Source of the DNA: Folioceros fuciformis
Lineage: Eukaryota
Direction: 5' to 3'
DNA length: 32,672 nt
Assembly: GCA_049999805.1 (NCBI GenBank)
Contig: JBNGIO010005925.1
Coordinates: 1-32,672, forward strand
Both the position numbers and the translations under genes were made by a program. This document shows positions 532 through 23,190 of the stretch, piece by piece. Below the pieces are notes generated by a model. It ran no database searches, had not been told where the DNA came from, and worked only from the letters and a program-made list of their open reading frames with translations. How positions within the stretch are numbered: position 1 is the stretch's first letter; every line of letters starts with the position of its first letter.

Positions 532-916
532 TGCTTGTACCTGCGTATAGTTGTATGCTACGTCTACCCATTCGTGTTGTCTGTAACTATGTAAAGTGTA
601 TGGCACCCTCTAAAGGAGAGTAGGGCCTACTAGGGGAACTACGTTCCACAGGGCTCCTGCCGTGTGCTTCTTGGTTTGCCAACTGCTTCAAGCGACTGAT
701 GTCTGCTTCATAACCGATATGAGCAGCAAAAGCATTCGGCTGCCGAGGTTCCGGAGGCCAGAGGTGGACGGCGGCCTGTGGGCCTGTGTACGAATGTCCG
801 ACCATGCTCCTCCTAACTACCTCTACGGTCGTGTGGTGTGGTCACGCAGTGCAGTGCCTGTGCATCCTGCCGTAAGTCTGTTGTCAGCCTCATGTTCCGA
901 CACCGGTTCCTGAAAG

Positions 917-3640
917 ATGGTCACTGCATGGCAGCCGGAGCCTTTGTGGACTCAACAGACTGCAATGGGGGAGTGTACAGGGATTGTACGAGGAGCCCCC
1001 TCTCGCCTCATTTTAGGAGGTGAACCTCTGACAAACAAGGCCTCCAACAGGTGCAGCAGTGTATGGAACCCAGCAATTCCACTACCGAGAAAAAGTCTGG
1101 GTGGGCACGGGTATTCCAGTTATGGTCGTCCCAACGACAAGGAGCAGGAGCAAGAGCAAGAGCACTTGTGGAAACGATTTTTCGTGGACCCGTCTATCTG
1201 GTGGGACATCAGACGAAATAAAAAGAGCTCCCGGTCGCCTGACTTCCGGCGTAAGAGGTGGAGCCAGGTCCTGTGCCTGAACAATTTGTTCCAGCCAGGT
1301 TGTGTTGATGAGCAGCTCATCTCCTTGGATGTGCGCGTGGGTCATGGTGCCTCTCCTGCTAGATGCCCATCTTTGGATGAGCCTGAACTTGGCAGGCGTG
1401 GAGGTTCGGGAATGGGTGTGGTCACCGCTGAGACCGTGAGCATGTTATGTCAGCAGGGGATGCTTTCTGAGGCAGTTGGAGCCCTGCAAGATCTGGCGCA
1501 CACGAACCCTGCCATCTCCCGGTCTCTGTTTTACACTGTGCTGAAACTGTGTACAGCCAAGAGGGATTTGGTCTCGGGGCGACGAGTTCATGATCTCACT
1601 GTCAAACTTGGGTACGATTCAAATGCATATGTGGGAAACCATATCTTGCGCATGTATGCATGCGGAGGTCGGCTACAGGAGGCCATGAATGTGTTCAGCA
1701 AGGTGGGCAAACCGGATGCGTTCCTTTGGTTTTCTATAATCTCCGCATTCTCTAAGCAGGGAAAACCTAATGAAGCCATACAACTGTACGAGGAGATGCG
1801 TAGGTCAGGAGTGAAGGCGAATGGCCACGTCTTTGTAGCTGCCCTGCAAGCTTGTGCATTGGCCGCCGACCTGGAATCTGGCAGGAAAGTGCACTCTGAT
1901 GTGTTGCACACTGGCATCCACACTAACTTGTTTGTTGGCAACTGCCTGGTGGACATGTATGCCAAATGTGGCGAATTGGAAGATGCTCGCCAGGTTTTCA
2001 ACAACATGGGGAGAAAGGATGTTGTGACATGTAATGCCCTCATATCTGGGTATGTCAAATGCGGTCAACTGGAAGACGCACGCCAGTTTTTTGACACCAT
2101 GCCCGCAAAGGATGTGGTGACATGGACCGCGCTGATTGCTGGGTATGCGCAGCAAGGGCTTGGCCAAGAGGCGCTCCTTATGTATGAACAAATGGAGGGA
2201 GAGGGCCTTGTTTTGGCTAACCACTTTACTCTGTCTTGCCTTCTGAAGGCCTGTGGAAGTACTGGTGCATTACAGAAGGGCAGGCAGCTGCACTCACATA
2301 TTGAGGAAAGAGGATTGCTGGATAACGTAGTCGTGAGCACCTGCCTGGTGGACATGTATGCAAAATGTGGTGAACTAGAAGCTGCACGCCAGGTTTTTGA
2401 CGGCTTGCCCACCAAGGATGTGGTTACATGGACTGCCCTGATTGCTGGTTATGCACAGCAAGGACTCGGCCAAGAGGCCCTTTCTGTGTATGGACAAATG
2501 GAGGAGGCGGGCCTCATTTTGGCTGACAATGTAACATTTTCTTGCCTGCTGAAGGCCTGTGCAAGCACTGGTGCCTTACAGAAGGGCAGGCAGCTGCACT
2601 CACAAATTGTCAAAAGAGGACTGCTGGATGACGTTGTGGTGGGCACCTGCTTGGTAGATATGTATGCAAAATGTGGTGAACTGGAAGCTGCACGCCAGGT
2701 TTTTGACAGCATGAACACAAAGAATGTGGTGACGTGGACCGCCCTGATATCTGGGTATGGTACTTGTGACGACGGTCAGATGGCACTTGCTTGTTTTGAG
2801 GAGATGTTAGCTGCCGGTATACAGCCTCATGATGCTACTTTTACTAGCCTTCTTGCAGCATGCAGTCATGAGGGACTAGTCGACGAAGGTCGCAAGCACT
2901 TTGCCTCTATGTTTGAACAGCATGGCATCAAACCTACCGTGGAGCATTATACCTGCATGATTGATCTTCTGGGTCGTGCTGGCCATTTGGCTGAGGCAGA
3001 GAAAATGCTATTATCATGTGAGGGCCGAGGCGATGTTGTGGGCCTGACGGCTTTGTTGACCGCCTGCCAAAGTCATGGGGACATAGAGAGGGCGACGTGG
3101 TGTTTTGAGAGCATTGTAAGGCTGGACCCCCAGGAGGCACCCGCCTATGTGCTCATGGCCAATGCCTATGCAGATGCAGGTAGGTGGGTGGATGTAGACA
3201 GGATTGAGACGCAGAGAAGGGCAGCAGGAGCTAACAAGATTGCTGCAGTGGCCACCATTGAGGTGGAGGAGCAGGTACATACATTTGTGGTGGGAGACAG
3301 GAGAGAGGATATTGCGCTCAGGGTGGAGAGCATGAATGCACGTTTGACACAGGAAGGGGGCCATGCACCTCACACAAGGCGGGTGTTGAAGCCAGTATGC
3401 GAGAAGGACAAGGAAGATGCGCTTTGTGGGCATGCTGAAAAACTAGCTATGGCGTTTGGTCTTTTAAATACTCCGAGTGGAACACCTCTGGTGGTGACGA
3501 AGAATTTACGCATGTGCAGTGACTGCCACAGTTCCACGGAGATCATGTCAAGACTTGAACAGAGACACATTGTTGTAAGGGACGGGTACCGGGTGCACCG
3601 ATTCGCTAATGGTTGTTGCAGTTGTAAGGGTCGACCGTGA
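917..3640 (+). CDS. PLS-class PPR protein with E1/E2 and C-terminal DYW:KP (GRP-type) domain; candidate organellar U-to-C RNA editing factor; N-terminal OSB-like PDF motif. The true start may be ATG 719 via an intron starting at 872.
   Basis: 907-aa ORF with P-L-S repeats (LVDMYAKCGELEAARQVFD, DVVTWTALIAGYAQQG), E motifs (HYTCMIDLLGRAGHL; AYVLMANAYA), a C-terminal domain with HAEKLA and CSDCH Zn ligands, and a GRP end instead of DYW. Confidence 0.95.
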   Translation: MVTAWQPEPLWTQQTAMGECTGIVRGAPSRLILGGEPLTNKASNRCSSVWNPAIPLPRKSLGGHGYSSYGRPNDKEQEQEQEHLWKRFFVDPSIWWDIRRNKKSSRSPDFRRKRWSQVLCLNNLFQPGCVDEQLISLDVRVGHGASPARCPSLDEPELGRRGGSGMGVVTAETVSMLCQQGMLSEAVGALQDLAHTNPAISRSLFYTVLKLCTAKRDLVSGRRVHDLTVKLGYDSNAYVGNHILRMYACGGRLQEAMNVFSKVGKPDAFLWFSIISAFSKQGKPNEAIQLYEEMRRSGVKANGHVFVAALQACALAADLESGRKVHSDVLHTGIHTNLFVGNCLVDMYAKCGELEDARQVFNNMGRKDVVTCNALISGYVKCGQLEDARQFFDTMPAKDVVTWTALIAGYAQQGLGQEALLMYEQMEGEGLVLANHFTLSCLLKACGSTGALQKGRQLHSHIEERGLLDNVVVSTCLVDMYAKCGELEAARQVFDGLPTKDVVTWTALIAGYAQQGLGQEALSVYGQMEEAGLILADNVTFSCLLKACASTGALQKGRQLHSQIVKRGLLDDVVVGTCLVDMYAKCGELEAARQVFDSMNTKNVVTWTALISGYGTCDDGQMALACFEEMLAAGIQPHDATFTSLLAACSHEGLVDEGRKHFASMFEQHGIKPTVEHYTCMIDLLGRAGHLAEAEKMLLSCEGRGDVVGLTALLTACQSHGDIERATWCFESIVRLDPQEAPAYVLMANAYADAGRWVDVDRIETQRRAAGANKIAAVATIEVEEQVHTFVVGDRREDIALRVESMNARLTQEGGHAPHTRRVLKPVCEKDKEDALCGHAEKLAMAFGLLNTPSGTPLVVTKNLRMCSDCHSSTEIMSRLEQRHIVVRDGYRVHRFANGCCSCKGRP
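2110..2715 (+). repeat. Internal tandem duplication of one P-L-S PPR triplet (2 x ~303 nt)
   Basis: KDVVTWTALIAGYAQQGLGQEAL...LVDMYAKCGELEAARQVFD occurs twice with near-identical DNA, e.g. CTGAAGGCCTGT...TTACAGAAGGGCAGGCAGCTGCACTCACA. Confidence 0.85.
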
Positions 3641-4734: not shown

Positions 4735-5886
4735 TTATGTTCCGATTAACCGTTTGTAACGAGCATACCCCAGTACACCCCCGAAAACAAGAAATCCTGC
4801 GAACCCTGTTAAAACAACCACCCATTTGAACATGTAGGAGTGGCCAGTATTCCACTTGTATGGAAGGTTCATTCCAAATATTCCAGCCACTAGTGCATAC
4901 AGGGCCGTCACTACTGTTGCAGAGCTCAATATAAGCTCTAGCTGTATCAGCTGATTCCTGTGGTTGTCCAGCTGGATGTTGATGTAATCCTCCGTGTCAT
5001 CAATGTACTCTCGAAGTGTTGTGAGCTTGTTTAGAGTCCCATCAATCTGCATGAAGTATGCCTCCAATAACATTTCAAGCTCCTCAATGTCCTCAGCACC
5101 ATGAGAATAGGTAGACACCGTAGCGGCTCTGCTAGCCCCTCTCGAGAGCCTTGAGCCAATTGTGGGAGAGGTGGCGACCCAGTCCCCGGGTGTCAAAGAC
5201 GTCCGAGCAGCTCTAGGAGATGCTCCTCCCACAGTTTTCCTTGTGAGAAACAGGTCAGCCATGTCCCCGTCATCATCCAGAAGCTGTTCAAGCTCATCCC
5301 TAATCTTTTGAACACGGGCAGTGAGTCTGGTCATCCCGCTCTTCAGCTTCCTCACTTTGTCCAGATTCCGACTAGTAATCTTGTTCGTCAGATCATCTAG
5401 AGCTGGATACGCTGATGTCTCAAGTTCTGTCATGCTTGCGTCCAGAAAGCTACAAATTGCTTCCAAAGCCACTTCCAATGCCCTGAACTCGAAAGGAGGC
5501 ACCTCTCCACTACTATCCACATCGTAGCCCTCCGCTCCAAAATTGTCAGGTTGCTGGACATAATTCTTGGCAGGCAGCCTGCGAGAAAGCTCTTCCACGA
5601 TTGGTACTACGTGCTCGCTGTGAGGGTTCCGCAACAAAACCTCTTCAGCTGTGATTATAGCTTTGATGTGCTCAAGATTCAGAACGATGGCCCGCTCACG
5701 CCCTAGGATGGTCGATGGATAAGACAGCAGAGGGTCTAGAATCCGAAGATCACGGGCATGTATCCCTACCCGATGCATGATCGCATATTTGTCTACATCC
5801 AACGCAGTACGGTGCCCATTCACGTCGAGCAAAACCCAATTCGTGCGAGATGCTCCCTTCTTCGGGCCTTGTGCTTGGACCGCCAT
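4735..5886 (-). CDS. MRS2: MRS2/CorA-family magnesium transporter (MRS2-2/7/I-like), 383 aa, single exon
   Basis: [70 protein letters not shown] and a GMN motif at the end of the first of two C-terminal TM helices. First ATG of the frame is at 5886. Confidence 0.95.
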
Positions 5887-6650
5887 GGCAGCTCTTCGCC
5901 GCGCGGCCGCCTGAGGACCCCAATTCCGGCAAATCAAACAGCTGCACCATAGCACAAGGCAATCCCAGAACGTCGTGCATACTCCTTAGATTCCGAGGGA
6001 ACAGAGTCTGCACGTCGGGGCAGTTATGATAAATGCCTGAGGCGTGCTTAGGTCTGAAGGGCGGACTCCAGCGTCAGCATTATAATTGCTCCAAGAACAT
6101 CCTTACCCTAACAAGCCAAAACACGTGGGCATCAACGGTCTGGGCCGTCTGCCATGGAGATGTGGTCATGCACACTAGGCACCTGCGGATGCGGATGCTG
6201 CCACAACAGTGGTGTCGCTGGACGTTGACGGATGGCCACACTGTGTTAATTTAACCCCTTGTGATCGATCCAACAAAGTCGCTCTGCGTAGAGGGATTCC
6301 AGTAGGACCGCCTGATCAGCTCACTGCAAGGAATGAAGCCACGGAACACAATCAAGCCTTCAGTTACGGCAGTGAAAAGGTGCCCAGCGAAAAAAAATCT
6401 TCGAAAATATGACGTTTTATTCTCTCAGGGCTTGCAATAATAAATCCTAAGCGCTGCACCATCCTCTGGCTTGTGCGCTCATCCAAATGCATGGCATGCC
6501 AAAGTTTTGTCCTAGGGTATCTAGAAACATATTCGCTTTCAATTTTCACTTTGACAAATGAACCAAATCGGACCTTGCACGGGGACACAACAAGCAATCG
6601 CACATATTTATTTGAGTTTTGAGTAAAAACAGCTAGCCTTCCCGTTTTAT

Positions 6651-6780
6651 GTTCATGACTTCTCTGCTAGATTGAAAGAAAATAGGAATTGTTCATGACT
6701 TCTTGGCTAGATTGCAAGCACATAAGAACTGTTCATGACTTGTTTGCGAGACTTCAAACATAAGAACACTTTCATGGCTA
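6651..6780. repeat. Degenerate 40-bp tandem repeat (~3 copies)
   Basis: GTTCATGACTT... starts at 6651, 6691 and 6731. Confidence 0.75.
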
Positions 6781-8384
6781 TTTCCTATTGTTGTGGGGAG
6801 GATCTATATGGCATATGCTTTTAAGGTTTGGGGTTGGCCCAGGCTGAGGAACTAGCTTGCGCTTGATGCATTCTCATTATATGCAATTGCACAATGGCCT
6901 CCAGCCCATTTAAGGTTTAGGGTTTAGAGGTCCAGCCTTGGCTAAGCCTAGCAGGCAGCTGAAACGGGCTAAAATAGATAGCTTCTTTTGGTTAGAGAAT
7001 GTCCATTGTTGTTNNNNNNNNNNTAATGTCATGTACAAAATGATGATAATGGCAAGAGAGGTGCAATCAGTAATTCTAAGTGTAAGTAGAACCTTCCTCC
7101 TCTCAAACTATGATATCTTAGGTACTATTGGTAGTCATAATTATGGTATTAGGCTTAGCGATTTCCAAGACTAGCTCTCATTGGTTTGGTCACCTTTTGT
7201 AGTTTATCTCATCACTTTTGGAATAGATAGGTTCCATCTTGTTTTTCTCCATTGAAGAAAATTATAATATTTAATGTTTGTGCATTTAATTGCATCTTCC
7301 CTTTCTTCCCTTTAAACACCCCATCTTAGTTACGTTACCTCCTTCAAGGACATCCTTCCCTTTAGATGTCCTATTCGAACTACATTACATGCTCCAAGGA
7401 CATCAATCCTTCACTTCCTTGTCTTTAGTGAAATAATTTAAAAGTTACTCAGATCAATTGCACTTAAGCAATCACATATTAAAAAAATATTATTTCTATA
7501 AAAAATCTATTGAATTAATTAATTAATAGAAAAAAAAGTAAGTTGGTTTTTAAACACTGCTTTCATATGTGCCTTTTGGCTAGGGGCACAATTCTTCACA
7601 AATAGGTATGTCTATTTGTATCTATTTATCTTGCTTATCTAATAACTTGTTACTAACTGATAAGCTATATAAAACCTCTAGAACCTCTAAAACCTCGTCA
7701 GTACATATCTCCTTCTTCTTCATTTAAGGACCCTATTCTAAGTAGAACCCGAATACAAAGATGCTTACTCAACAATCTTCTTATATATTATACCCATATA
7801 TGTTGGGCTAAGCCATCATGTATGAGGGTTTTCTACTTCAACAATGTCTTTTGATTAGTTGACAAGTTTGAGTCTTGGACTACTTTGCTTCCTTACATTT
7901 ATTATAATTATGTTTGATTTCTTTAATTACGTTCTCAAGAATATTAAACAAAAAGGACTTCATCGCTAAAGAATGAAAACCTCCTCATTAAAGAACCCTA
8001 GGAAAAACACTCAACTAAATGTTACAAAATCAAGCAAGAACTTATCATCTATGGCACACCAAAGGCAGGCTCTTCAGTCTATCGTTCAAAGACCTTGGGG
8101 CCCAAAACAAAGGGAGGTCCTTAGGCTAGAGCCACCAACAAATACTTTTATTAGTAATGTCATCAACAAACCATTTACTCATTAAATGATCATTTTAACT
8201 TTACTATACTTTATGAATGTTTTCACATAAAGACAGGGGAACATTGGGATCCCTCTTTCGGTCACCCGTTTCTTTCAAGTGATCAATACAATCACTTCTC
8301 CATAATATCAGCTTAGGCACTTTATAGGAATCATCAGCACTAGCTAGCACTTCTTAAGAATATAAACACAAGCAATATATGAGA

Positions 8385-8480
8385 ATCAAAGGTGGAGGCA
8401 CTTTGCAAGGATCAGAGGTGGAGGCACTTTGCAAGGATCATTAGCATAGGCAATTTGTGAGAATAAAAGGTGGAGGCTCT
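8385..8480. repeat. Short tandem/dispersed duplication (ATCA(A/G)AGGTGGAGGCACTTTGCAAGG)
   Basis: Two adjacent near-identical ~26-bp copies plus a partial third copy near 8467. Confidence 0.7.
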
Positions 8481-9429
8481 CACAAACCCTCTCTATGGGC
8501 CAAGTGGAGACCGTAGAAAGGACGGAGTACATGTTGACATGTTGGTGCCCCTAGGTTGAGTTGGCTAGGTTGGTTGTTCTTAGAGTGATTACCAAAGTCT
8601 AGTCGTTAGGTGATTTAGTCATAAAAATATCTCGTTTAATCTACTAGCAAATCCCCACATTCATCTAAGCATGGAGGTGTTAGCATGGTTGATTTGTACT
8701 ATAGCCTTGATCTTCACATGTGAGTTAGCCTTTACAAATCCCTCTTGTGACTACAGATGCCACAAAAGCATGACCATGATTTGGAGGCAAGGTCTTTGAA
8801 AGTACAAGGTTTTTGTGAAATAAGATCATGATTTTCACTCTCATTCATGTGCAATTGGTTACATACCCTTTTTCAATGCCCATGAAGTCGCTTCTTCCAA
8901 GCATGTTCATATTAAAAGACTCATGTGGCATATTTGGACCCTTGAAATTTTATGGTCTTAGCTAGAGAATTTTTAGTCATTAGAAAGTATTAGGCTAGAA
9001 CATAATACTAGAGTAACAAATCTTCAGCAATATATATAGCTCAAAATTGTTGAGTTGCTTGTGTAGGCATAAAAAAGAGCAAGACCTAGCTCCCCTTCCC
9101 TTTAGCTTTTCTTGGCCTCCAATTGGCTATATGTCTAGCTTGTTTCTTGATGTTCTTGGATTCATGTTCTGGTGCCATGAAAATGTAGAAATTGTAAATA
9201 TAAATATCTTACTTCAATCTCAATGGAAAAACGCCAATGAGGTTTTCAGTGAGAGCTCGTTCAAATATCTTCACAATGGTGTATAAGACAACACATTTTT
9301 ACAAGTATGCAATTCAGCACAAAGCCTCAGTAGTAGGATTGATGTTCGTGTATACAATGGACTTATAGACTCTCACTCAAATGTGCATTTGGATGACTGG
9401 CGCCCATCTACCCCTCTCCTCCCCCTCCC

Positions 9430-9745
9430 CTTCTTGAGGCTTGGGGGAGGCTATGAGCCCCCCTTGTCCCCTATAGCTCACAACCATGAGTGCTCCTATG
9501 GCTATCCTCGAAGCCACTATTGGAGCTCTATGGATGGATGCAACATACATGCAATGCAATGGAACAGTTTGCACGAAACCCGTTACACTCCATCCAATTT
9601 CAAGCTCATAGTTCCCCCCTTTCCCCCTTGAGGCTTGGGAGCGAGAGAGGCTACGAGCCCTATGGATGGATGTAATATACTTGCGGTGCAATGCAACAAC
9701 TTGCACTAAACCCATTGCATTCCATCGAGTTTCAAGCTCACAATT
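9430..9745. repeat. Diverged local duplication
   Basis: CTATGGATGGATG...TTTCAAGCTCA occurs at ~9528-9609 and ~9660-9741. TTGAGGCTTGGG occurs at ~9434 and ~9628. Confidence 0.65.
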
Positions 9746-10144
9746 TTCTCCAAAACATGTAAACTAACAAGTCTAGTGTCTAGCAACTCATAGGTTAAGT
9801 TTGATATTTTAATACATGAAAATGAAAATACACATCATTATTATAAATATCATATAACGACTCTTTTGTCATCGTCATTCTCTTCCATATTCATCTTATA
9901 TATATAACAGTCACTCTATAGATGGAGGCTATATCATTCATCGGTTGTCATAAAAGACTCCACAATGTAGTAGTGTTAATTTCCCAGCCTCTAAGACCAA
10001 GGAGATGAACTACTTGTTGCATACATTGTCCAGCCTAACCTCAATTGAAGCTCTAAAACACATGCATGCTAGGAGTCGTGGCAGTCCTTGTCCACACCTA
10101 TTGCAACCTATGTACGATAACCAAATGCATGTGACACTTTGAAG

Positions 10145-10183
10145 GATTTAGGGTTTAGGGTTCTTAACCCTAAACCCTAAATC
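10145..10183. repeat. Perfect inverted repeat of plant telomere units (18-bp arms, 3-nt spacer)
   Basis: GATTTAGGGTTTAGGGTT-CTT-AACCCTAAACCCTAAATC. Confidence 0.9.
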
Positions 10184-10277
10184 AATGATCCTTTTAAGGA
10201 TTGTTGTTTAAACCCTTTCATGAAGAATAGTTGTAACAAATAAGGAGCATCTCCAATAATGTAAGGAGGCATAGGAA

Positions 10278-10510
10278 CACCTTCCACCATGGTAATGAGC
10301 TCTTTAAATAGGCTCTTTCTGATCATCTGTTGCCATGAACTACTATTTCACAAAATTCTTGCATCATTAGAACCTCCTGAGACTATTGAGGCATAAATCT
10401 AACCTTCCATCATGGTAATGGGTTCTCTAAATATGCTCTTTCCGATTACAGATTGCCATTAACTATTACTTCCAAAATTTTGCATCATTAGGACCTCCCA
10501 AGACTATTGA
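10278..10510. repeat. Diverged tandem duplication (~120-bp period) inside the transposase relic
   Basis: ACCTTCCA.CATGGTAATG...TGCATCATTAG.ACCTCC..AGACTATTGA is present twice. Confidence 0.8.
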
Positions 10511-11487
10511 CAAATATATCTAAAACAAGTATTGATGGTCATATATAGCCTATAGAGCAATACAAGGCATGTTATAATGCTTGCAATGATATACTATTGG
10601 TGTGTACATTGGTGGTGGCTTAACAATGAACTGTATCAAAGAGTCGTCAATAGCACCTACAATGTTAAGTAGTAGTGTCCACTCAAACTTTGCAGAATGG
10701 CTTCCTAATGTTGTCTTGATGGAATGCCAATGAAAGACAAGTATAATTTCCTAGGATCACTTAATATAGCCATCACAGCCTTTGTGTATTGTACCACTTG
10801 TTGCCACACCCACTCCATGTTTTATGGGCCACCTCATAAGGAGCAATTATCTTCATGGCTGATAATATTGCATCCACCCTTCGCTTCTGATCTTGCACTA
10901 AAGCTGATAGTATTGGTCATGCTTGCATCTGCAAACTCTCCCACAAACCTTGCTGACTAGGTGATTTCCACCAAACCCTAGAAACACTTGGTCTTGTAGT
11001 CTATATTGGCAAACTAATTGTTGCAACCATTACCAACATTATGAAAGAACTCATCACATTACTTGATTCCACCCTAAAACAAGGTTTGATAAGTTTCGCT
11101 ATAGTTTTTCATTTTGAGGGTACATGTTCTAGACAGGCAACATAGAGATTCTATGTGAAAATTCTATCACCCTCCCTGAGTAATCTTTGGTATGTCATAG
11201 TTCCCTGCAACTCCCCGTTGAATTTCCTTGGACACTCCCTCCACATTGTTGGGCAATGGGATGAATTAATATGCAAAACGGTTATAATATACATTGAGGG
11301 AAACAATTATGGTGAGTTATTATACACGACTTGCAGTCTGTGCTGTTTCCTGCACACCTCCCATTGAGGTTAGCCTCTATCCGTAAAAGTTCTGTGTATA
11401 GCGGGTACTAATGGAGACATAGCAGAATGTGCGGGGCACTATTAATGGTGTCACACTTGTTATATGTGCAAACACTCTATTTCCTGT

Positions 11488-11670
11488 TAACTTTAGGCTT
11501 TTGTTAAGCATCATCCCTTACTTTTCACGAATACAAGGTCCACTTTTTTCTCCTTTTTGCATGTAAAGCTTCTGGTCATATTAATCGTGTGAACTTTAGG
11601 CTCTTGTTAAGCATCACCCCACACATTTTACATATACAAGGTCCGCTTTTTTCTCTTCCCTGCATTAAAG
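11488..11670. repeat. Diverged tandem duplication (~103-bp period)
   Basis: AACTTTAGG...TTGTTAAGCATCA...ATACAAGGTCC.CTTTTTTCTC is present twice. Confidence 0.7.
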
Positions 11671-11781
11671 CCCAATGGCTCCCACATTCTACTCACATGA
11701 ACCCGGGAAAAATAGTGGTATGAGAAACGGAAAGCATGGCCCCACTTTACGAAAATCTCGGACTGATACAGAAACAGAGCT

Positions 11782-11885
11782 TAGTCCGTGATAAGGAGGA
11801 GGGTAGTCCCTGATATGGAGAAGGGTAGTCCGTGATACGGAGCCCTCCTCTCTACCCGGAGCTTGGTCCGTGATACGGAGCCCTA
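11782..11885. repeat. Short degenerate repeats (GTCCGTGATACGGAG)
   Basis: About four variants, at 11784, 11806, 11828 and 11866. Confidence 0.65.
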
Positions 11886-11902
11886 CTCATCATGGAGCTT
11901 TC

Positions 11903-12480
11903 TTTTTAAGAATGTTCCTGCAACTTCGTCCCGGACGGACCAGTTTTTAAGAATGTTGCTGCAACTTTGCACCAGATGGACCGGTTTTTAAGAATGTTGC
12001 TGCAACTTCGCACTGGACGGACCGGTTTTTAAGAATGTTGCTGCAACTTCGCACTGGACGGACCGGTTTTTACGAATGTTGCTGCAACTTCACACCGATG
12101 GACGGGCTTTCAAGAATGTTGCTGCAACTTCGCATCGGGACAGATGGGTTTTTAAGAATGTTCCTGCAACTTCGCACCGGGACGACGGGACGGACAGGTT
12201 CTTAAGAATGTGCATGCAACTTTGCACCGGATGGACCGGTATATAAGAATGTTCGTGCAACTTTGCAAGCACAAATCGGTTATTAAGAATGTTCGTGCAA
12301 CTTCGCACCGCACGGACTGGTTTTTTAAATGTTCTTGCAACTTGGCACCGAACGGACCGGTTTTTTAAATGTTCCTGCAACTTGGCACTGGACGAACCGG
12401 TTTTTAACAAGGACGAACCGGTTTTTAACAAACTAGTTTTTAAGAATGTTCCTGCAACTTCGCACCGTATGGACCGGATC
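11903..12480. repeat. ~39-bp tandem minisatellite (roughly 13 copies)
   Basis: Unit TTTTTAAGAATGTT(G/C)CTGCAACTTCGCAC(T/C)GGACGGACCGG. Confidence 0.92.
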
Positions 12481-13537: not shown

Positions 13538-16500
13538 CTAAACAAAGTAGGAAGCAGAAGTAGTCAAGTCTGACAGGATCTCCAGTTGGTCCTCACTGAA
13601 CAGATACTTCTGTATGGCCCACGTGTCCGAATGAGTGCGTCGAAACTCCGCTATGGTTTTCATTACCGTACCTCTGGTGGGTGGACCTTCCTTGATGAAC
13701 CACGCCAAAGCGCAAATGATATCAGGTAACCATAGAGGAACGTCATAAGGAGAACTCAACACGCAAGCTGCCAGACCCAATGCGATTCCATGAACCTTGG
13801 CAACTGGATACCCAGCAATGCTACTCCTGTTTTTCCTCCTGCCAGACTTTTGGAAGGTCAGAGCCTCGGCCAGTGCCTCGTCCCGAAAACTGGTAACCAA
13901 CTTCTCATCAGCCCCTTTCATCATTCCTGCCAACGTTTCTGCTGCCAGCTCCCGGACCTCCAGCTGAGGATCGAAGAGCAGCTGCCGCACAGTATCCCAC
14001 AGCAGCGTTGACTCTTCCTCAGACATGATGAAGGTATGCCTGAAGAAGAAACACTGCATAGACACTAACGCTGCCACTCTCGTGTGCCAATTGGAGTCCG
14101 CTGTCGATAGAACAATAGCAGCCACAGCTTCTGGGAGATGCGCTGCAGGACATGGCTGATAGTTGAGAAGCCGGAGAGCTAACATGGCCAGCGCAGACAG
14201 CTCCTTCTCAGATGTCTCTTGCAGAGACAGCAGAGGGCGGATGAGGCCCACAATAGTACTGATAACAACCCCTGCCCTGCCAGACTTGATGCAAGCAATC
14301 ATGAAATACAGTGCAGTCTCCATCCACTTCACCGCTTGTTTACTCTCCTCACTTCCAACATCACTGCCGCTGGCATTGCTATCGCCGGAACTCAGGGCTG
14401 ATGCAGAGCTCATTATCTGAATCTTGGATGAGGCACTGACAGCACCCTGCACTAACAGTGAGCTCCAATCCTCGTAATGCACCCCGGCAAAGGAACTATC
14501 CACAGTAACCCCCTCTGTATTCAAGATACCCTTCAAGTTTGACAGCAAGACGCACATAATGTTCCCCACTGCTTCACGAACCTGGGCCGCAGGATGAGCC
14601 ATGCTATCCACTGCTTCTCGTAAAAGCGCTGCCTGGAACTTGTAACCCTTGATCCCGGCAGGCCCAGGCAGTAGCTCTGTAACTGCCGCTTGCAGCAGGG
14701 TTAGTCGCCTTGCAACCAGGCTACTTGATGCTGAGGCTGGTACTGGCTCCACAAGACAGTCAAGTATCTTCCTGGATAGCAATGGCTCACTCACTCCGTC
14801 ATTGCCTTTCCGAGTCATAGCAAAACGAATGCAGGCAGCCCATTCTGTCACGGATTCCAAGTTTGCTTGCATCACCACGTTTCTCAACAACGGGCCAAGC
14901 CATTCATTCCAGGCCTCCAACACACACGTGGCATCTGAATGCAAAAGACCAGCAAACATTTCAGAGGCAACACATTGCTTGCCCCTTTCATCCACAGCGT
15001 TGGCTGCATCCTCAAGTGGGCCACGCAGGGCATCAAGTACCGCTGGACCACATTCCTGAACCAGATATTCAAACACCCTGGCTAAATTAGCTGAGAACGC
15101 TTCACCTCTGGAAGTTATGTCCCAAGTCCTTGTTCGGGGCCACTCTCTGATGAATGAAGGCATATAAGCGGTGATTCCCAGATCTGACATCCTCTGTCGA
15201 CTAGATCCAGCATAATTGTTTCTGCCTGACCTCCCCGGTCCCTCCGGATAGTGGTGATCAAAGGCAAGATTCTGGACAACATTGGCAAAAAAATCGCCAT
15301 CCTGCAAGACTTGCACAATGGAACTTTCCACAGAACGTGGGAATTCTTGAACACCTGATTCGGAAACCTCATTATCCGATCTGCCCTCTGCAGCCACCTG
15401 AGTGGGGGACTGGAGAAGAAATTGCAGGGCAATGATGGACATGGGTCGGAGTGGCGGAAGCTCACTCTTCAAATTGGAGAAGAACTGCCCTGTTATGTAC
15501 TGCCTGGAGGCTGACGTGACATCTTCCCCATATGACGAGCCAAACAACCTGGGAGGAGTCACCAATAGCAGGAGCATGGCATGGGCCATCAATGTGTACC
15601 GCCAATGAACTGTTCCCTGATTGCCCGCCAAGAAGCCCTTGATTTCTGATATCAGTCCATCGTACATGGGACCATCCTCGGAGGCATGAGGCACTTCGCT
15701 TGGCAGGACTCCCCCAAACCGCACATAAAACACAACAAACAGTTCATTTATGGCTGCCTGGGCTTTAATAGTTTCAAGATGAGAACTGCGGAGCAAAGAC
15801 AACAAAAACGAAGCGAACGAAGGCCAATCCTGCATGAGGCACCGAATCACATGCCTCGACATGAGTACCCTACAAGCTCCCAGAGCCGCCTCTTCAACAC
15901 CCTCAGGTCCTCGCAGCGAAGCAGTTAGCAGTGGCATGCAACCCTTCACGAGTGCAGGAAACCTCTTAAGCATCTTGCTCAGGGTGTTTGCTGCTTGACC
16001 TCGCACTGTGTCATAATTGTGGAGAGAGAGTTTCAGAAGATCTCCAGAGAGAGAGAGAACGTGGGCTGGAGGAGCCAGCTTCTTGGTGGTGGGAGTGTAT
16101 GGCCTGTACCCAGCTTGGGACGCTCGCCATTCACTATGCAAGTAGACTTTTTCGATTAGGAACCATTGTGGACGCCGAGGTCCCTTTGTGTATGTGCCTG
16201 TTATAAGATTGATCTGAGGCTCCAGAAAGCTTCTGCTAGATGATCTCCAAGCTAACCAGTCTTCAAACTCCAGTGACCCATAATTACCAGTCAATCCAAT
16301 CACTCGCACCAAAGTCAGAAGCAGCTTGGTATCATCTGCCCTCTCCTTCAGGAAAGATTCACATGCAACATGAAGAGCATCTGCAGTCTCCTCTCGCAAT
16401 TCAACAGATCCAACAGAGGCTCCAGCAGCCCCGGCAACAGTTAAAGATTGGCCAGATAAATCTGCATTTGATGGGCGTCTGAAATCAGGCAAGCAAGATC

Positions 16501-19057
16501 TCACACCATGGAGACTTGCTTCCATGCGTAGCAGGACTACTCGTAGGTCTTCCTTCTCCTGCCGTAAAACATCCCCAGTCTGTGCCTGCTGGCAGAAGCT
16601 CAGCAACTCAGGAAGTACGCATCGCAGGTGTGAGTCCAACAACGCATTGGCATATGCAACTTCCTCTGCACTTGGCGCATGCCATACTGGCGCCTGACCT
16701 TTAAATGTCTCCACATCGAAGTCCTTGATACTCATCCATGCCTCAATGTCAGCGAAGTACTTCTCCCCAGACCTGTATTCCTCAAGTGGATAGTACCGTA
16801 TCAAACTCCCCAGTAAATTACTCAGCAGATGGCTTCCAGCCTCATTCACTTTGGTGGAAGGCGCCCCGAAGGCTGCCTCAATCACATTGTTTAACAGATC
16901 CTTGTAAGGGAGGAGAGCTTCTCCACCAAATGTTACAGCTAGAGCAAGAACATTAATCTGGTGAGAGACTGACGTGGACAGAGCGGGAGACAAGCTTGCC
17001 AGCTTGCCATCTGCTTGATTCCTCAAACCCCTGGAAGGAGCCTCAGCCAGAGCAGAGATTATGGACATCATTATCGGCTTAAGAAGGACTTCCGTTGTCT
17101 CAACCGGACTGGCATATACCGCAGCACGGCAAAGCAGACCTATTTCGTCTGAAGCTCCAGGTAAGACGCTGGTGTGCACAAACTTTGCCACCTTTTTCAA
17201 ACCCTGCTGGAAGAGCGGCTTTGTTAACCTACCAAACAGTAGTTCAATCATAGCGTGACACACGGATCCACGCTGAAGCAGAAAACTATGAGAGCACCGA
17301 CTGAACCCTTCGTCGACTCCCACATCTCCTGCCTGACTACTAGGTTCCAAATGCACCAGCAGTACAAACAGACGGGAGAGAAACTCGTCAAGCCACAGAG
17401 ACCAGTCAATTGGTAGGAAAACATTCCCACCTTCCTCAATGCCACCCAAAACTAGGATGCTTGATATTACAGCAAAATAGAACCGCAATGTTGCCAGGGT
17501 CTTAGGAGGGTCGTTGGCATCCATCCCAGGGAGTGTGTCGAACATGGCAGCGACAAGGACTTCCTTGTAGGCCATACTGGCCATGGTCTCTTCAGTAGCG
17601 TCAAGCATGTCCACATCCTTGCCAGCCAACTGCCGTGAGGCAACCTCCCTTGCTGACACTAGCAGTATGGATCTGGCAGCCAACGCCAGAGTGTTCAAAG
17701 CTGATTCCAACTGATGAGTGGCTGTGATAGTATCCATGGCAGTCTGAAAGCCCGCTATGACCAGAGGTAGAACCAGGGATGGTTCCACATATGCCAGGTT
17801 TGTCGCCGCATCTGCTGCAGTTCTTGCCAGCTGCCCATTCTTGCTGTACTGGCCCCTCTCAATCAGCTTCAACATGGCTTTCACAAACGCCACCCGTTCC
17901 TCCGGGCCTAGAAAGTGGTCACTGTCCACGCCATTTTTCAGCTTCAACCTTTTGCCTTGCTCCTTGGCCAGGCGTTTGAGGAAAAACATGACGAGATATC
18001 GAAGAAACTGTTCAAGAAAAGTCGTCCATGATCCTCCATTAGACGGATGGTAATACTGCTCAAGGAGCTCAACAATAATCTCAAGTTGAACCTGAGCTGA
18101 ACCCCCTGGATGCAGCAGAAAAACAATCGTCCTGGCTATTACTTTAGCATTTGACGTTGACCAGCCAGAGTTGAAGGCAAGCATAACTTCACGCGGAACA
18201 GATCTCTGTACCGGCGATGATGCACTGGCCTTCCCGACAGGTACCTCAAATGACCTCAGAAAGTGCATGAAGAGAGTAGGCATGACGGGCTCCAAGTCAG
18301 CAACAGCAGGGGCACAGTGCTGAATATACCTTCCCACCAGGGAGGACCATTGCAGATTCCAATAGTAGCAGTTTGGGATTGCCGACCACAACTTGAGACA
18401 GTCTGCTAGCCATTGCGGAGTGAAAAAAGTACGGTCCCAATCAGAAGCCGCATATTTGGTGGGGAGAAACAATGAGATGAAACCCACTGCTTCGAGCGCC
18501 AGATTGTGAGACAGATCCTCCAGTGCAGGTTTGAACTCCGCCCAGATCTCCCCAGCAGACTGTGAAGGGAAGTAACGGTGACAGCTTCTCACCAATGATG
18601 ACACCAGCTCCAAGTGTGTCTGCTTCAATGCTAGACCTTCATAGCTATGACGCCTGTTGAAATGAGTATTGAGGAGCAGAACATAGAGGGGCCTCCACTC
18701 AATGTTCAAGACAAGTTTTTTTCGATACTTCTTAACAAGTGTAAGTAGGCAGTGCCCCCATCGAACCTGGACAAAGAGATGGTCATTGGACTGCAGGAAG
18801 ATGTCGAGGCTCAGCTCTGCAAGGCACTGCAAATCCGCCAGATCAAGGTCACTCTTAGCCTTCAAAAATGTGGTGAGAACAGAAATCCACCGCAGTGTTG
18901 CATATCTAGACTGCGGCTCTTGAGGCTTCCATTCGCTTTGGACGGTCTGTACAACAACATGGAATTTCGTCCTCTCCTCAGCTACTCCCTCAAGGATGGG
19001 TGGCGGCAGCCATGCATTGCAGAGGTGGACTTTCTCTGGTTCAGCAGTATCCGCCAT
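13538..19057 (-). CDS. PA200: Proteasome activator subunit 4 (PA200/PSME4/Blm10), 1839 aa, single coding exon
   Basis: The N-terminus HLCNAWLPPP matches the plant PA200 start. Also LLEQYYHPSNGGSWT, GMDANDPPKT, SSPYDVPLWLP and AEFRRTHSDTW, with a C-terminal ...SASYFV (proteasome-docking-type tail). First ATG of the frame is at 19057. Confidence 0.95.
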   Translation of the reverse strand: MADTAEPEKVHLCNAWLPPPILEGVAEERTKFHVVVQTVQSEWKPQEPQSRYATLRWISVLTTFLKAKSDLDLADLQCLAELSLDIFLQSNDHLFVQVRWGHCLLTLVKKYRKKLVLNIEWRPLYVLLLNTHFNRRHSYEGLALKQTHLELVSSLVRSCHRYFPSQSAGEIWAEFKPALEDLSHNLALEAVGFISLFLPTKYAASDWDRTFFTPQWLADCLKLWSAIPNCYYWNLQWSSLVGRYIQHCAPAVADLEPVMPTLFMHFLRSFEVPVGKASASSPVQRSVPREVMLAFNSGWSTSNAKVIARTIVFLLHPGGSAQVQLEIIVELLEQYYHPSNGGSWTTFLEQFLRYLVMFFLKRLAKEQGKRLKLKNGVDSDHFLGPEERVAFVKAMLKLIERGQYSKNGQLARTAADAATNLAYVEPSLVLPLVIAGFQTAMDTITATHQLESALNTLALAARSILLVSAREVASRQLAGKDVDMLDATEETMASMAYKEVLVAAMFDTLPGMDANDPPKTLATLRFYFAVISSILVLGGIEEGGNVFLPIDWSLWLDEFLSRLFVLLVHLEPSSQAGDVGVDEGFSRCSHSFLLQRGSVCHAMIELLFGRLTKPLFQQGLKKVAKFVHTSVLPGASDEIGLLCRAAVYASPVETTEVLLKPIMMSIISALAEAPSRGLRNQADGKLASLSPALSTSVSHQINVLALAVTFGGEALLPYKDLLNNVIEAAFGAPSTKVNEAGSHLLSNLLGSLIRYYPLEEYRSGEKYFADIEAWMSIKDFDVETFKGQAPVWHAPSAEEVAYANALLDSHLRCVLPELLSFCQQAQTGDVLRQEKEDLRVVLLRMEASLHGVRSCLPDFRRPSNADLSGQSLTVAGAAGASVGSVELREETADALHVACESFLKERADDTKLLLTLVRVIGLTGNYGSLEFEDWLAWRSSSRSFLEPQINLITGTYTKGPRRPQWFLIEKVYLHSEWRASQAGYRPYTPTTKKLAPPAHVLSLSGDLLKLSLHNYDTVRGQAANTLSKMLKRFPALVKGCMPLLTASLRGPEGVEEAALGACRVLMSRHVIRCLMQDWPSFASFLLSLLRSSHLETIKAQAAINELFVVFYVRFGGVLPSEVPHASEDGPMYDGLISEIKGFLAGNQGTVHWRYTLMAHAMLLLLVTPPRLFGSSYGEDVTSASRQYITGQFFSNLKSELPPLRPMSIIALQFLLQSPTQVAAEGRSDNEVSESGVQEFPRSVESSIVQVLQDGDFFANVVQNLAFDHHYPEGPGRSGRNNYAGSSRQRMSDLGITAYMPSFIREWPRTRTWDITSRGEAFSANLARVFEYLVQECGPAVLDALRGPLEDAANAVDERGKQCVASEMFAGLLHSDATCVLEAWNEWLGPLLRNVVMQANLESVTEWAACIRFAMTRKGNDGVSEPLLSRKILDCLVEPVPASASSSLVARRLTLLQAAVTELLPGPAGIKGYKFQAALLREAVDSMAHPAAQVREAVGNIMCVLLSNLKGILNTEGVTVDSSFAGVHYEDWSSLLVQGAVSASSKIQIMSSASALSSGDSNASGSDVGSEESKQAVKWMETALYFMIACIKSGRAGVVISTIVGLIRPLLSLQETSEKELSALAMLALRLLNYQPCPAAHLPEAVAAIVLSTADSNWHTRVAALVSMQCFFFRHTFIMSEEESTLLWDTVRQLLFDPQLEVRELAAETLAGMMKGADEKLVTSFRDEALAEALTFQKSGRRKNRSSIAGYPVAKVHGIALGLAACVLSSPYDVPLWLPDIICALAWFIKEGPPTRGTVMKTIAEFRRTHSDTWAIQKYLFSEDQLEILSDLTTSASYFV

Positions 19058-19351
19058 TCCTTTCGCTGCGATGCCAACTTCAGGTCGCTGTGTACCTGAC
19101 TGGTTACCAACAAGCCAACGAACTATCCTGTTTCCACAGTCGGCCGCACACTCCTGAAACCTCTGCCAGTCAACAATTACAGCACAGCCCTGCGATCCCA
19201 CTCAACCCTTGTCCACTCCTGTTCCTCGTCAGAAGGCACGTTGAGCATAGACACTTGGAACCGAGTACCACCACCAACTCCCGTCGTATGCAGAATCCCT
19301 AGCACCAGCAAGAAAAAGCGAAGCGGCTGGTAGCAGGTCAAGGTAGTACTG

Positions 19352-21558: not shown

Positions 21559-23190
<1,632 letters not shown>

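Follow-up and report, generated by a model that had tools for sequence, protein, structure and literature searches.

Plant organelle RNA editors are usually viewed as proteins in which an E motif and a DYW domain come after a PPR tract, with helper proteins acting in trans. The PPR or PLS tract binds RNA sequence-specifically, with its N-terminus towards the 5' end of the RNA, and the DYW domain holds the catalytic site. Hornwort DYW:KP proteins are divided, in the accessible text of one study, into DRH and GRP subgroups that are named by their last three residues (PMC9478123), and in the accessible text of another, U-to-C activity is reported for designer consensus proteins only, with none demonstrated for natural KP proteins (PMC11845758). 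A separate family, the OSB proteins (for Organellar Single-stranded DNA Binding), is described in excerpts of two papers as carrying PDF repeats at the C-terminus, behind a central SSB/OB-like domain (PMC13393729, PMC6963530). According to excerpts of three reviews, the PDF motif of AtOSB1 suffices for binding single-stranded DNA (ssDNA), and OSB1 and OSB2 prefer ssDNA over double-stranded DNA or RNA (PMC6963530, PMC4166229, PMC6451138). Here, we describe a gene on a 32,672-nucleotide (nt) stretch from Folioceros fuciformis (contig JBNGIO010005925.1, analysed in full and called the window below) whose predicted 907-amino-acid (aa) product joins the two systems: one domain almost certainly homologous to the OSB PDF repeats stands at the N-terminal side of a PLS-class editing factor that ends in GRP.

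The PDF domain and its relatives

The preliminary description of this locus had placed an OSB-type PDF motif at residues 84-134 (nt 1166-1318). The translation of that span is identical to the string it quoted, and the span lies inside the domain as we delimit it, but the domain is slightly longer, covering residues 82-139 (nt 1160-1333). To search for relatives, residues 82-140 were used as a single-sequence phmmer query against 1.84 billion (1.84e9) representative proteins. At E<=1e-3 this search found 179 proteins, 33 of which reached E<=1e-10, and repeated matches within one protein were frequent. The 150 of these 179 matches that were listed were then scanned with Pfam. The SSB domain PF00436 was present in 47 of the 150, always N-terminal to the matched PDF repeat, and reached the Pfam cut-off of 26 bits in 34 of the 47, while PPR proteins accounted for a further 11 and carried the PDF domain N-terminal to the PPR repeats in every case. 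The other 91 listed matches contained no SSB, PPR or kinesin domain, and consisted mostly of proteins with no Pfam match, many of them short fragments. Names given by the source databases to the matches listed included OSB1-like (Populus), OSB3-like (Chenopodium, Striga, Cajanus, Canna), Arabidopsis OSB3, and OSB4. When Arabidopsis OSB3 was compared with the window segment by BLASTP, three separate stretches of the OSB protein were matched, with E values of 1e-9, 5e-7 and 7e-4.

We also derived a profile from the 47 SSB-bearing proteins, which contributed 82 PDF segments, with PPR-borne copies excluded. This OSB-only profile scored residues 82-138 at 53.6 bits, and no score above 13.2 bits was obtained from 2000 shuffles of the N-terminus or the segment. 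The profile match on which the preliminary description had made its OSB claim depend is therefore present, although the segments in the profile had been chosen by their likeness to the query, so that the independent statistic is the phmmer E-value. In an alignment of 36 sequences, the window copy kept all six invariant columns (D16, R18, K21, D28, F29, and P46, numbered by position in the 59-aa segment) and seven of the eight nearly invariant ones, and the P-D-F triplet for which the motif is named is present. The copy departs from the others at four places, N17>I (in WWDNR), H31>R (in KHK), W39>C and W48>C, and the drift that had been listed earlier (WWDNR to WWDIR, HK to RK, two Trp to Cys) was thus recovered in the alignment. 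Modeling of the 59 residues with AlphaFold2, using the alignment as input, gave a helix-strand-strand-helix arrangement with a mean predicted local distance difference test score (pLDDT) of 91.9 and no residue below 70.

Other searches were less productive. A word-index homologue search with the 59-residue fragment found one word-sharing candidate, which gave no score, and in the same search with residues 1-210 not one of the 821 candidates did; both outcomes reflect a limit of the method, since HMMER did find relatives. The best feature match in the ESM Atlas (0.75) was an unrelated bacterial cluster and was uninformative. Considered together, the phmmer, profile and BLASTP results indicate that the homology of residues 82-139 to the OSB PDF repeats is nearly certain, and the motif assignment made in the preliminary description is upheld.

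Several matches outside the OSB and PPR proteins were also seen. Strong multi-copy PDF matches occurred in Effrenium voratum (P0010 and its cluster, 7 copies; a dinoflagellate by source name) and in a metagenome-assembled genome of Sanguina aurantia (P0018, 4 copies; a chlorophyte snow alga by source name). Reviews, in the parts accessible, restrict the PDF motif to green plants and state that Chlamydomonas lacks OSB genes. In P0134 (Coptis chinensis, 1526 aa), a kinesin-motor model is combined with PDF matches near residues 191-245, which may represent either a fused annotation of adjoining genes or a further PDF fusion.

The gene and its editing-factor part

The 907-aa protein is encoded by one unbroken open reading frame (ORF) that includes its stop codon, and a stop codon in the same frame (911-913) sits directly 5' of the ATG at 917. 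The features of the gene, in window coordinates, are as follows.

917-3640, + strand: complete PDF + PLS-PPR + E + DYW(GRP) gene (ORF list, translation, Pfam)
917-1159, + strand: N-terminal extension, residues 1-81, with a short acidic EQ run after a presumed organelle-targeting presequence
1160-1333, + strand: PDF domain, residues 82-139 (HMMER, OSB-only profile, BLASTP, AlphaFold2)
1334-1441, + strand: weakly conserved linker, residues 140-175 (14-17% identical to relatives)
1442-3073, + strand: PLS-type PPR tract, residues 176-719, bounds approximate (Pfam PPR, PPR_2, PPR_1, PPR_3)
2050-2759, + strand: tandem duplication within the PPR tract (Tandem Repeats Finder; period 306 nt or 102 aa, 2.3 copies, 83% matches)
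3074-3262, + strand: E motif, residues 720-782 (Pfam PF20431, E 8.5e-13)
3359-3637, + strand: DYW-family deaminase domain, residues 815-907, putative GRP subtype of DYW:KP (Pfam PF14432)

When the window was read in all six frames, the segment at residues 82-139 gave the sole PDF match. A Pfam scan of the whole protein, with E up to 10, detected no SSB domain PF00436, and PPR repeats follow the PDF domain instead; the predicted protein has a domain in common with OSBs yet is not an OSB family member. In the same scan no family was found in the first 175 residues apart from CRIM1_C at E 0.068, a match that we put down to chance. Residues 1-70 contain 6 K+R, 3 D+E and 12 S+T, and residues 1-81 are presumed to include an organelle-targeting presequence.

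Downstream of the linker the protein is built like a PLS-class editing factor. Pfam PPR matched 12 stretches (E 2.1e-81), the tract is followed by the E motif, and the DYW-family domain (PF14432 match at residues 815-905, E 2.5e-31) carries the HxE and CxxC deaminase motifs as HAE and CSDC. From its length, the 306-nt repeat unit probably corresponds to one P-L-S triplet, and the duplication suggests a recent internal repeat expansion, which would lengthen the RNA footprint. The C-terminus reads GRP in place of DYW. In an alignment made by eye, K-N-L-R-M-C places the active-site Lys four residues before Met-Cys, with the Met preceding CxxC, and the Glu of H-S-S-T-E after CxxC stands where the PG-type protein P0073 has Lys. 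These positions correspond to what is stated in the accessible text of two studies, in which the conserved active-site Lys is numbered Lys88 (PMC11845758), Met replaces the Val95 of PG-type domains in KP domains, and Glu replaces the PG-type Lys103 in GRP proteins (PMC9478123). The N-terminal box of the domain reads K-I in the window protein, K-P in P0091 and P-G in the Sphagnum PG-type protein, and is thus KP-like without the Pro. Based on the GRP ending, the Met, the Glu and the conserved Lys, the predicted 907-aa protein belongs to the GRP subgroup of DYW:KP, whose members are candidate U-to-C editors. Its closest relative among the matches listed, P0091 (753 aa), is 49% identical over PPR-E-DYW and also ends in GRP. 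The order proposed in the preliminary description, with the PDF motif N-terminal to PLS-PPR repeats and a GRP-type DYW:KP domain, agrees with the Pfam PPR, E and DYW matches downstream and with the GRP ending, Met and Glu.

To determine whether the PDF domain belongs to this protein, identity was computed by segment against four PDF-PPR relatives. It was 40-48% for the PDF segment and 26-49% for the first PPR motifs, but 17-23% for the presequence part and 14-17% for the linker, and the conservation among relatives on which the earlier claim also rested is accordingly seen. The PDF domain is a conserved island between unconserved flanks, in frame in a single ORF. Because the domain starts just 81 residues from the protein start, we considered whether the PDF stretch might be an artefact of the gene model, being intronic, part of the 5' leader, or cleaved with the transit peptide. 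This is very improbable. From ATG 917, which directly follows an in-frame stop, the ORF continues without a break, and no Met occurs between residue 17 and about residue 165, so that the next available start is beyond the PDF domain and would deprive the protein of a presequence. At least four named genera have independent gene models or assembled contigs in which the order of N-terminal extension, PDF, linker and PPR is repeated, and a conserved, confidently folding domain of 58 residues is unlike a transit peptide. No sign that the segment is spliced out was seen, and an intron at this locus is likewise not expected, since the three neighbouring genes of the window are also single long ORFs. 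It is quite likely that the PDF domain is retained on the mature protein.

The neighbouring genes and other features of the window are listed below.

4735-5955, - strand: MRS2/CorA-type Mg transporter, 406 aa, uninterrupted ORF
13538-19201, - strand: proteasome activator PSME4-like protein, 1887 aa, uninterrupted ORF
21559-23187, - strand: monodehydroascorbate reductase-like protein, 542 aa, uninterrupted ORF
1-445: C-rich tandem array (period 43-53 nt, about 8 copies) located upstream of the PPR gene; three + frames are open and would read as low-complexity sequence rich in His, Pro and Thr
6001-12000: about 6 kb at 39-40% G+C between genes of 50-55% G+C, with no ORF >=200 aa

With three housekeeping-type genes in single ORFs, the locus is unusually poor in introns for a land plant. 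The stretch at 6001-12000 could be intergenic or repeat-derived.

Recurrence of the PDF-PPR fusion

At least 14 relatives combine PDF and PPR, comprising the 11 listed phmmer matches and three more from a profile search (573 matches, of which the best 120 were listed, in a ranking that favours multi-copy OSB proteins). The Sphagnum compactum protein CAM6033764.1 (564 aa) ends in DYW, and is therefore taken to be of the PG type. No Pfam DYW-domain match was found in Selaginella XP_024517303.1 (910 aa), in the two Adiantum proteins KAI5076972.1 and KAI5061374.1, or in five Diphasiastrum clusters (KAJ7570437.1 and others), which have up to three PDF copies and in several cases an E motif. Five further assemblies also carry PDF+PPR proteins. 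The PPR proteins have one to three PDF copies, always before the PPR tract, and all of the relatives look PLS-class. They are annotated at the source only as hypothetical or generic PPR proteins, and none of the source-named ones listed, a small sample, is from a seed plant. PDF(1-3)+PLS-PPR is thus shown, among predicted proteins, to be a recurrent architecture in mosses, lycophytes, ferns and hornwort-like sequences.

The preliminary description had proposed testing whether the fusion is enriched on KP versus PG types. Among PDF+PPR proteins with a DYW domain, one has a DYW ending (Sphagnum) and two have GRP endings (the window protein and P0091), the rest having no Pfam DYW match, and these numbers are too few for such a test. 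In these predicted proteins the fusion is found outside this gene and also apart from KP-type domains, and a KP-specific enrichment as such is rejected. This distribution also bears on the idea that the PDF domain steers DYW:KP to ssDNA, so that organelle DNA rather than RNA would be edited or crosslinked. Apart from the fact that OSB PDF motifs are known to prefer ssDNA, nothing speaks for this, whereas the full RNA-editing architecture of PLS tract, E motif and DYW domain is kept, and the same fusion is found on E-type or DYW-less PLS proteins. Since the fusion occurs without any deaminase domain, PDF is not tied to catalysis, and we regard DNA-directed catalysis as barely credible.

To examine the history of the fusion, a domain tree was made by quick search from 59 columns. 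It covered 24 PDF domains borne by PPR proteins and 223 others, the latter being representatives below 70% identity from 591, with isoforms P0152-P0162 and partial domains left out. The PPR label required 10 changes on this tree, compared with 19-24 in 200 label shuffles, and the window copy fell in a nine-tip clade (Shimodaira-Hasegawa-like approximate likelihood ratio test, SH-aLRT, 89) in which eight of the nine tips are PPR-borne. These results point to few origins of the fusion, although 59 columns cannot settle the matter and related sequences share labels anyway. A single origin is not established, since the PPR-borne domains cluster yet do not form one clade. P0057, which is 162 aa long and has one PDF copy, is placed with the PPR-borne clade. 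Many of the listed matches without SSB, PPR or kinesin are likewise short fragments, 80-200 aa in length, that hold one PDF copy each, and given these, and the position of P0057 among PPR-borne copies, the PDF+PPR count is probably a lower bound.

The fusion appears undescribed in the literature on OSB, PPR and DYW proteins, where an earlier mention, for example in supplementary tables, is possible. A 2026 survey of editing-factor domain fusions makes no mention of OSB, PDF or single-stranded DNA, and a 2026 paper on the OSB family does not mention PPR. In one review that names both the PDF motif and PPR proteins, the PPR passage is about RNA polymerase. The Pfam scan returned no PDF-motif family, and, as the PDF motif has no Pfam model, domain-based surveys miss it.

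Possible roles of the PDF domain and comparison with known systems

We hold with moderate confidence that the protein is an organelle-targeted PLS-class editor of the GRP type with one folded PDF domain, which serves as an accessory single-strand grip or nucleoid tether. For the grip or tether function taken separately, the chances seem to us evenly balanced. Because a PPR tract lies with its N-terminus towards the 5' end of the RNA, the PDF domain would be located 5' of the PPR footprint, where it might act as a sequence-independent module for binding single-stranded nucleic acid. It could grip the transcript, raising affinity or dwell time, or it could hold ssDNA or the nucleoid and bring the editor to nascent RNA, in which case editing would take place beside transcription. 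In either case the PLS tract would select the target and the DYW:KP domain would then convert the base.

Several observations weigh against this proposal. In structural comparisons, a Foldseek search of the PDF model against the PDB gave no match at E<=0.001, and the best Z in a wide VIA-align search was only 2.6, so that the model resembled no solved fold in either search. This by itself does not make the fold new, and structure thus gives nucleic-acid binding no independent support. The preference of OSB proteins for ssDNA over RNA weakens the version in which the domain grips RNA. The PPR-borne PDF domains do not form one clade, and 5 of the 24 lie outside the PPR-rich clades. No sequencing run recorded as RNA contains the locus, so transcription, splicing and presequence cleavage are predictions. 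A 996-nt contig from run X1 is identical to window 640-1556 without gaps, but it may be DNA and may come from the source sample, and it has no bearing on splicing; in runs X2 and X6 the matches were confined to short pieces over PPR-coding parts, with 90-95% likeness. Finally, the window copy ranks 15th of 16 PPR-borne segments, at 53.6 bits compared with 69-92 bits for 13 others, and has lost two conserved Trp (the nearly invariant W39, and W48) and the Asn of WWDNR. P0091 (54.8 bits) is similarly diverged at other positions; among PPR-borne copies that are single or come first, these two have diverged most, and the divergence of both copies fits relaxed constraint in the GRP lineage.

This divergence raised the possibility that the domain is a decaying relic, in which an ancestral fusion was functional but the hornwort GRP copy is drifting and no longer binds, leaving an ordinary PLS-DYW:KP factor with an inert N-terminal spacer. 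The low scores of both copies are consistent with this, as are the changes of W39 and W48 to Cys and of N17 to Ile in the window copy, and the loss of W14 and of the Pro of P-D-F together with a 2-residue insertion in P0091. However, none of the six invariant columns is changed, the frame is open throughout, and the window's own sequence is still modelled as folded by AlphaFold2, with a pLDDT of 91.9, though the model leans on the alignment. In addition, the PDF segment is as conserved between the window protein and P0091 (48%) as are the PPR motifs (49%), in contrast to flanks at 17-23%. We consider decay unlikely.

Less likely again is that PDF in the PPR context is a protein-protein or assembly module, active in oligomerisation or in recruitment to a nucleoid or editosome partner, and does not bind nucleic acid. 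In excerpts of the respective reports, AtOSB2 forms a tetramer (PMC6963530) and OSB proteins tune RecA-driven reactions in a pathway-specific manner (bioRxiv 10.64898/2026.10.24.761589), both of which would suit such a module, as would the variable number of PDF copies, from one to three on PPR proteins and up to nine in other matches listed. On the other hand, ssDNA binding is the only activity assigned to the motif in the accessible parts of reviews, and in the literature, as far as its accessible text goes, oligomerisation or partner binding is not mapped to the PDF motif and no partner is known.

A bolder form of the grip-or-tether proposal is that these proteins are an old, undescribed subclass of editing factors in non-seed land plants, in which PDF, taken over from the recombination-surveillance OSB proteins or held in common with them, anchors the editor to ssDNA at transcription bubbles or nucleoids. 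We think this improbable, to about the same degree as decay. If it were true, editing, including hornwort U-to-C editing, would be physically coupled to transcription or DNA maintenance, and seed plants would have lost the subclass at the time when separate helper proteins arose.

More generally, if editors carry a conserved domain for nucleic-acid binding in cis, this would add a new functional element to them, present in several lineages. The PDF fusion would offer a concrete handle on where editing takes place relative to transcription and nucleoids, and PDF is a candidate for addition, as a module, to engineered editors of the U-to-C and C-to-U kinds. The range of PDF is also widened beyond the OSB family, which bears on OSB origins.

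The architecture would be new as a variant, the PDF domain and GRP editors each being already known. With OSB proteins, the predicted protein has in common a PDF domain of roughly 50-58 residues, in which the window copy keeps all invariant columns, but in OSBs an SSB/OB-like domain lies upstream of C-terminal PDF repeats, whereas here the PDF domain is N-terminal, with PPR repeats and a deaminase domain after it. The hornwort GRP DYW:KP proteins, on which the designer editors KP2 and KP3 are based, are alike in PLS repeats, E motif, GRP-ended DYW domain and the HxE...CxxC motifs, but the N-terminal box reads K-I in the window protein where P0091 has K-P, and in the accessible text of their descriptions no N-terminal PDF domain is reported on KP proteins, while the window protein has one. 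The other PDF+PLS-PPR proteins of non-seed plants show the same order, with one to three N-terminal PDF copies and then PLS-type PPR repeats, and their PDF domains tend to group with that of the window, although most are nearer the consensus.

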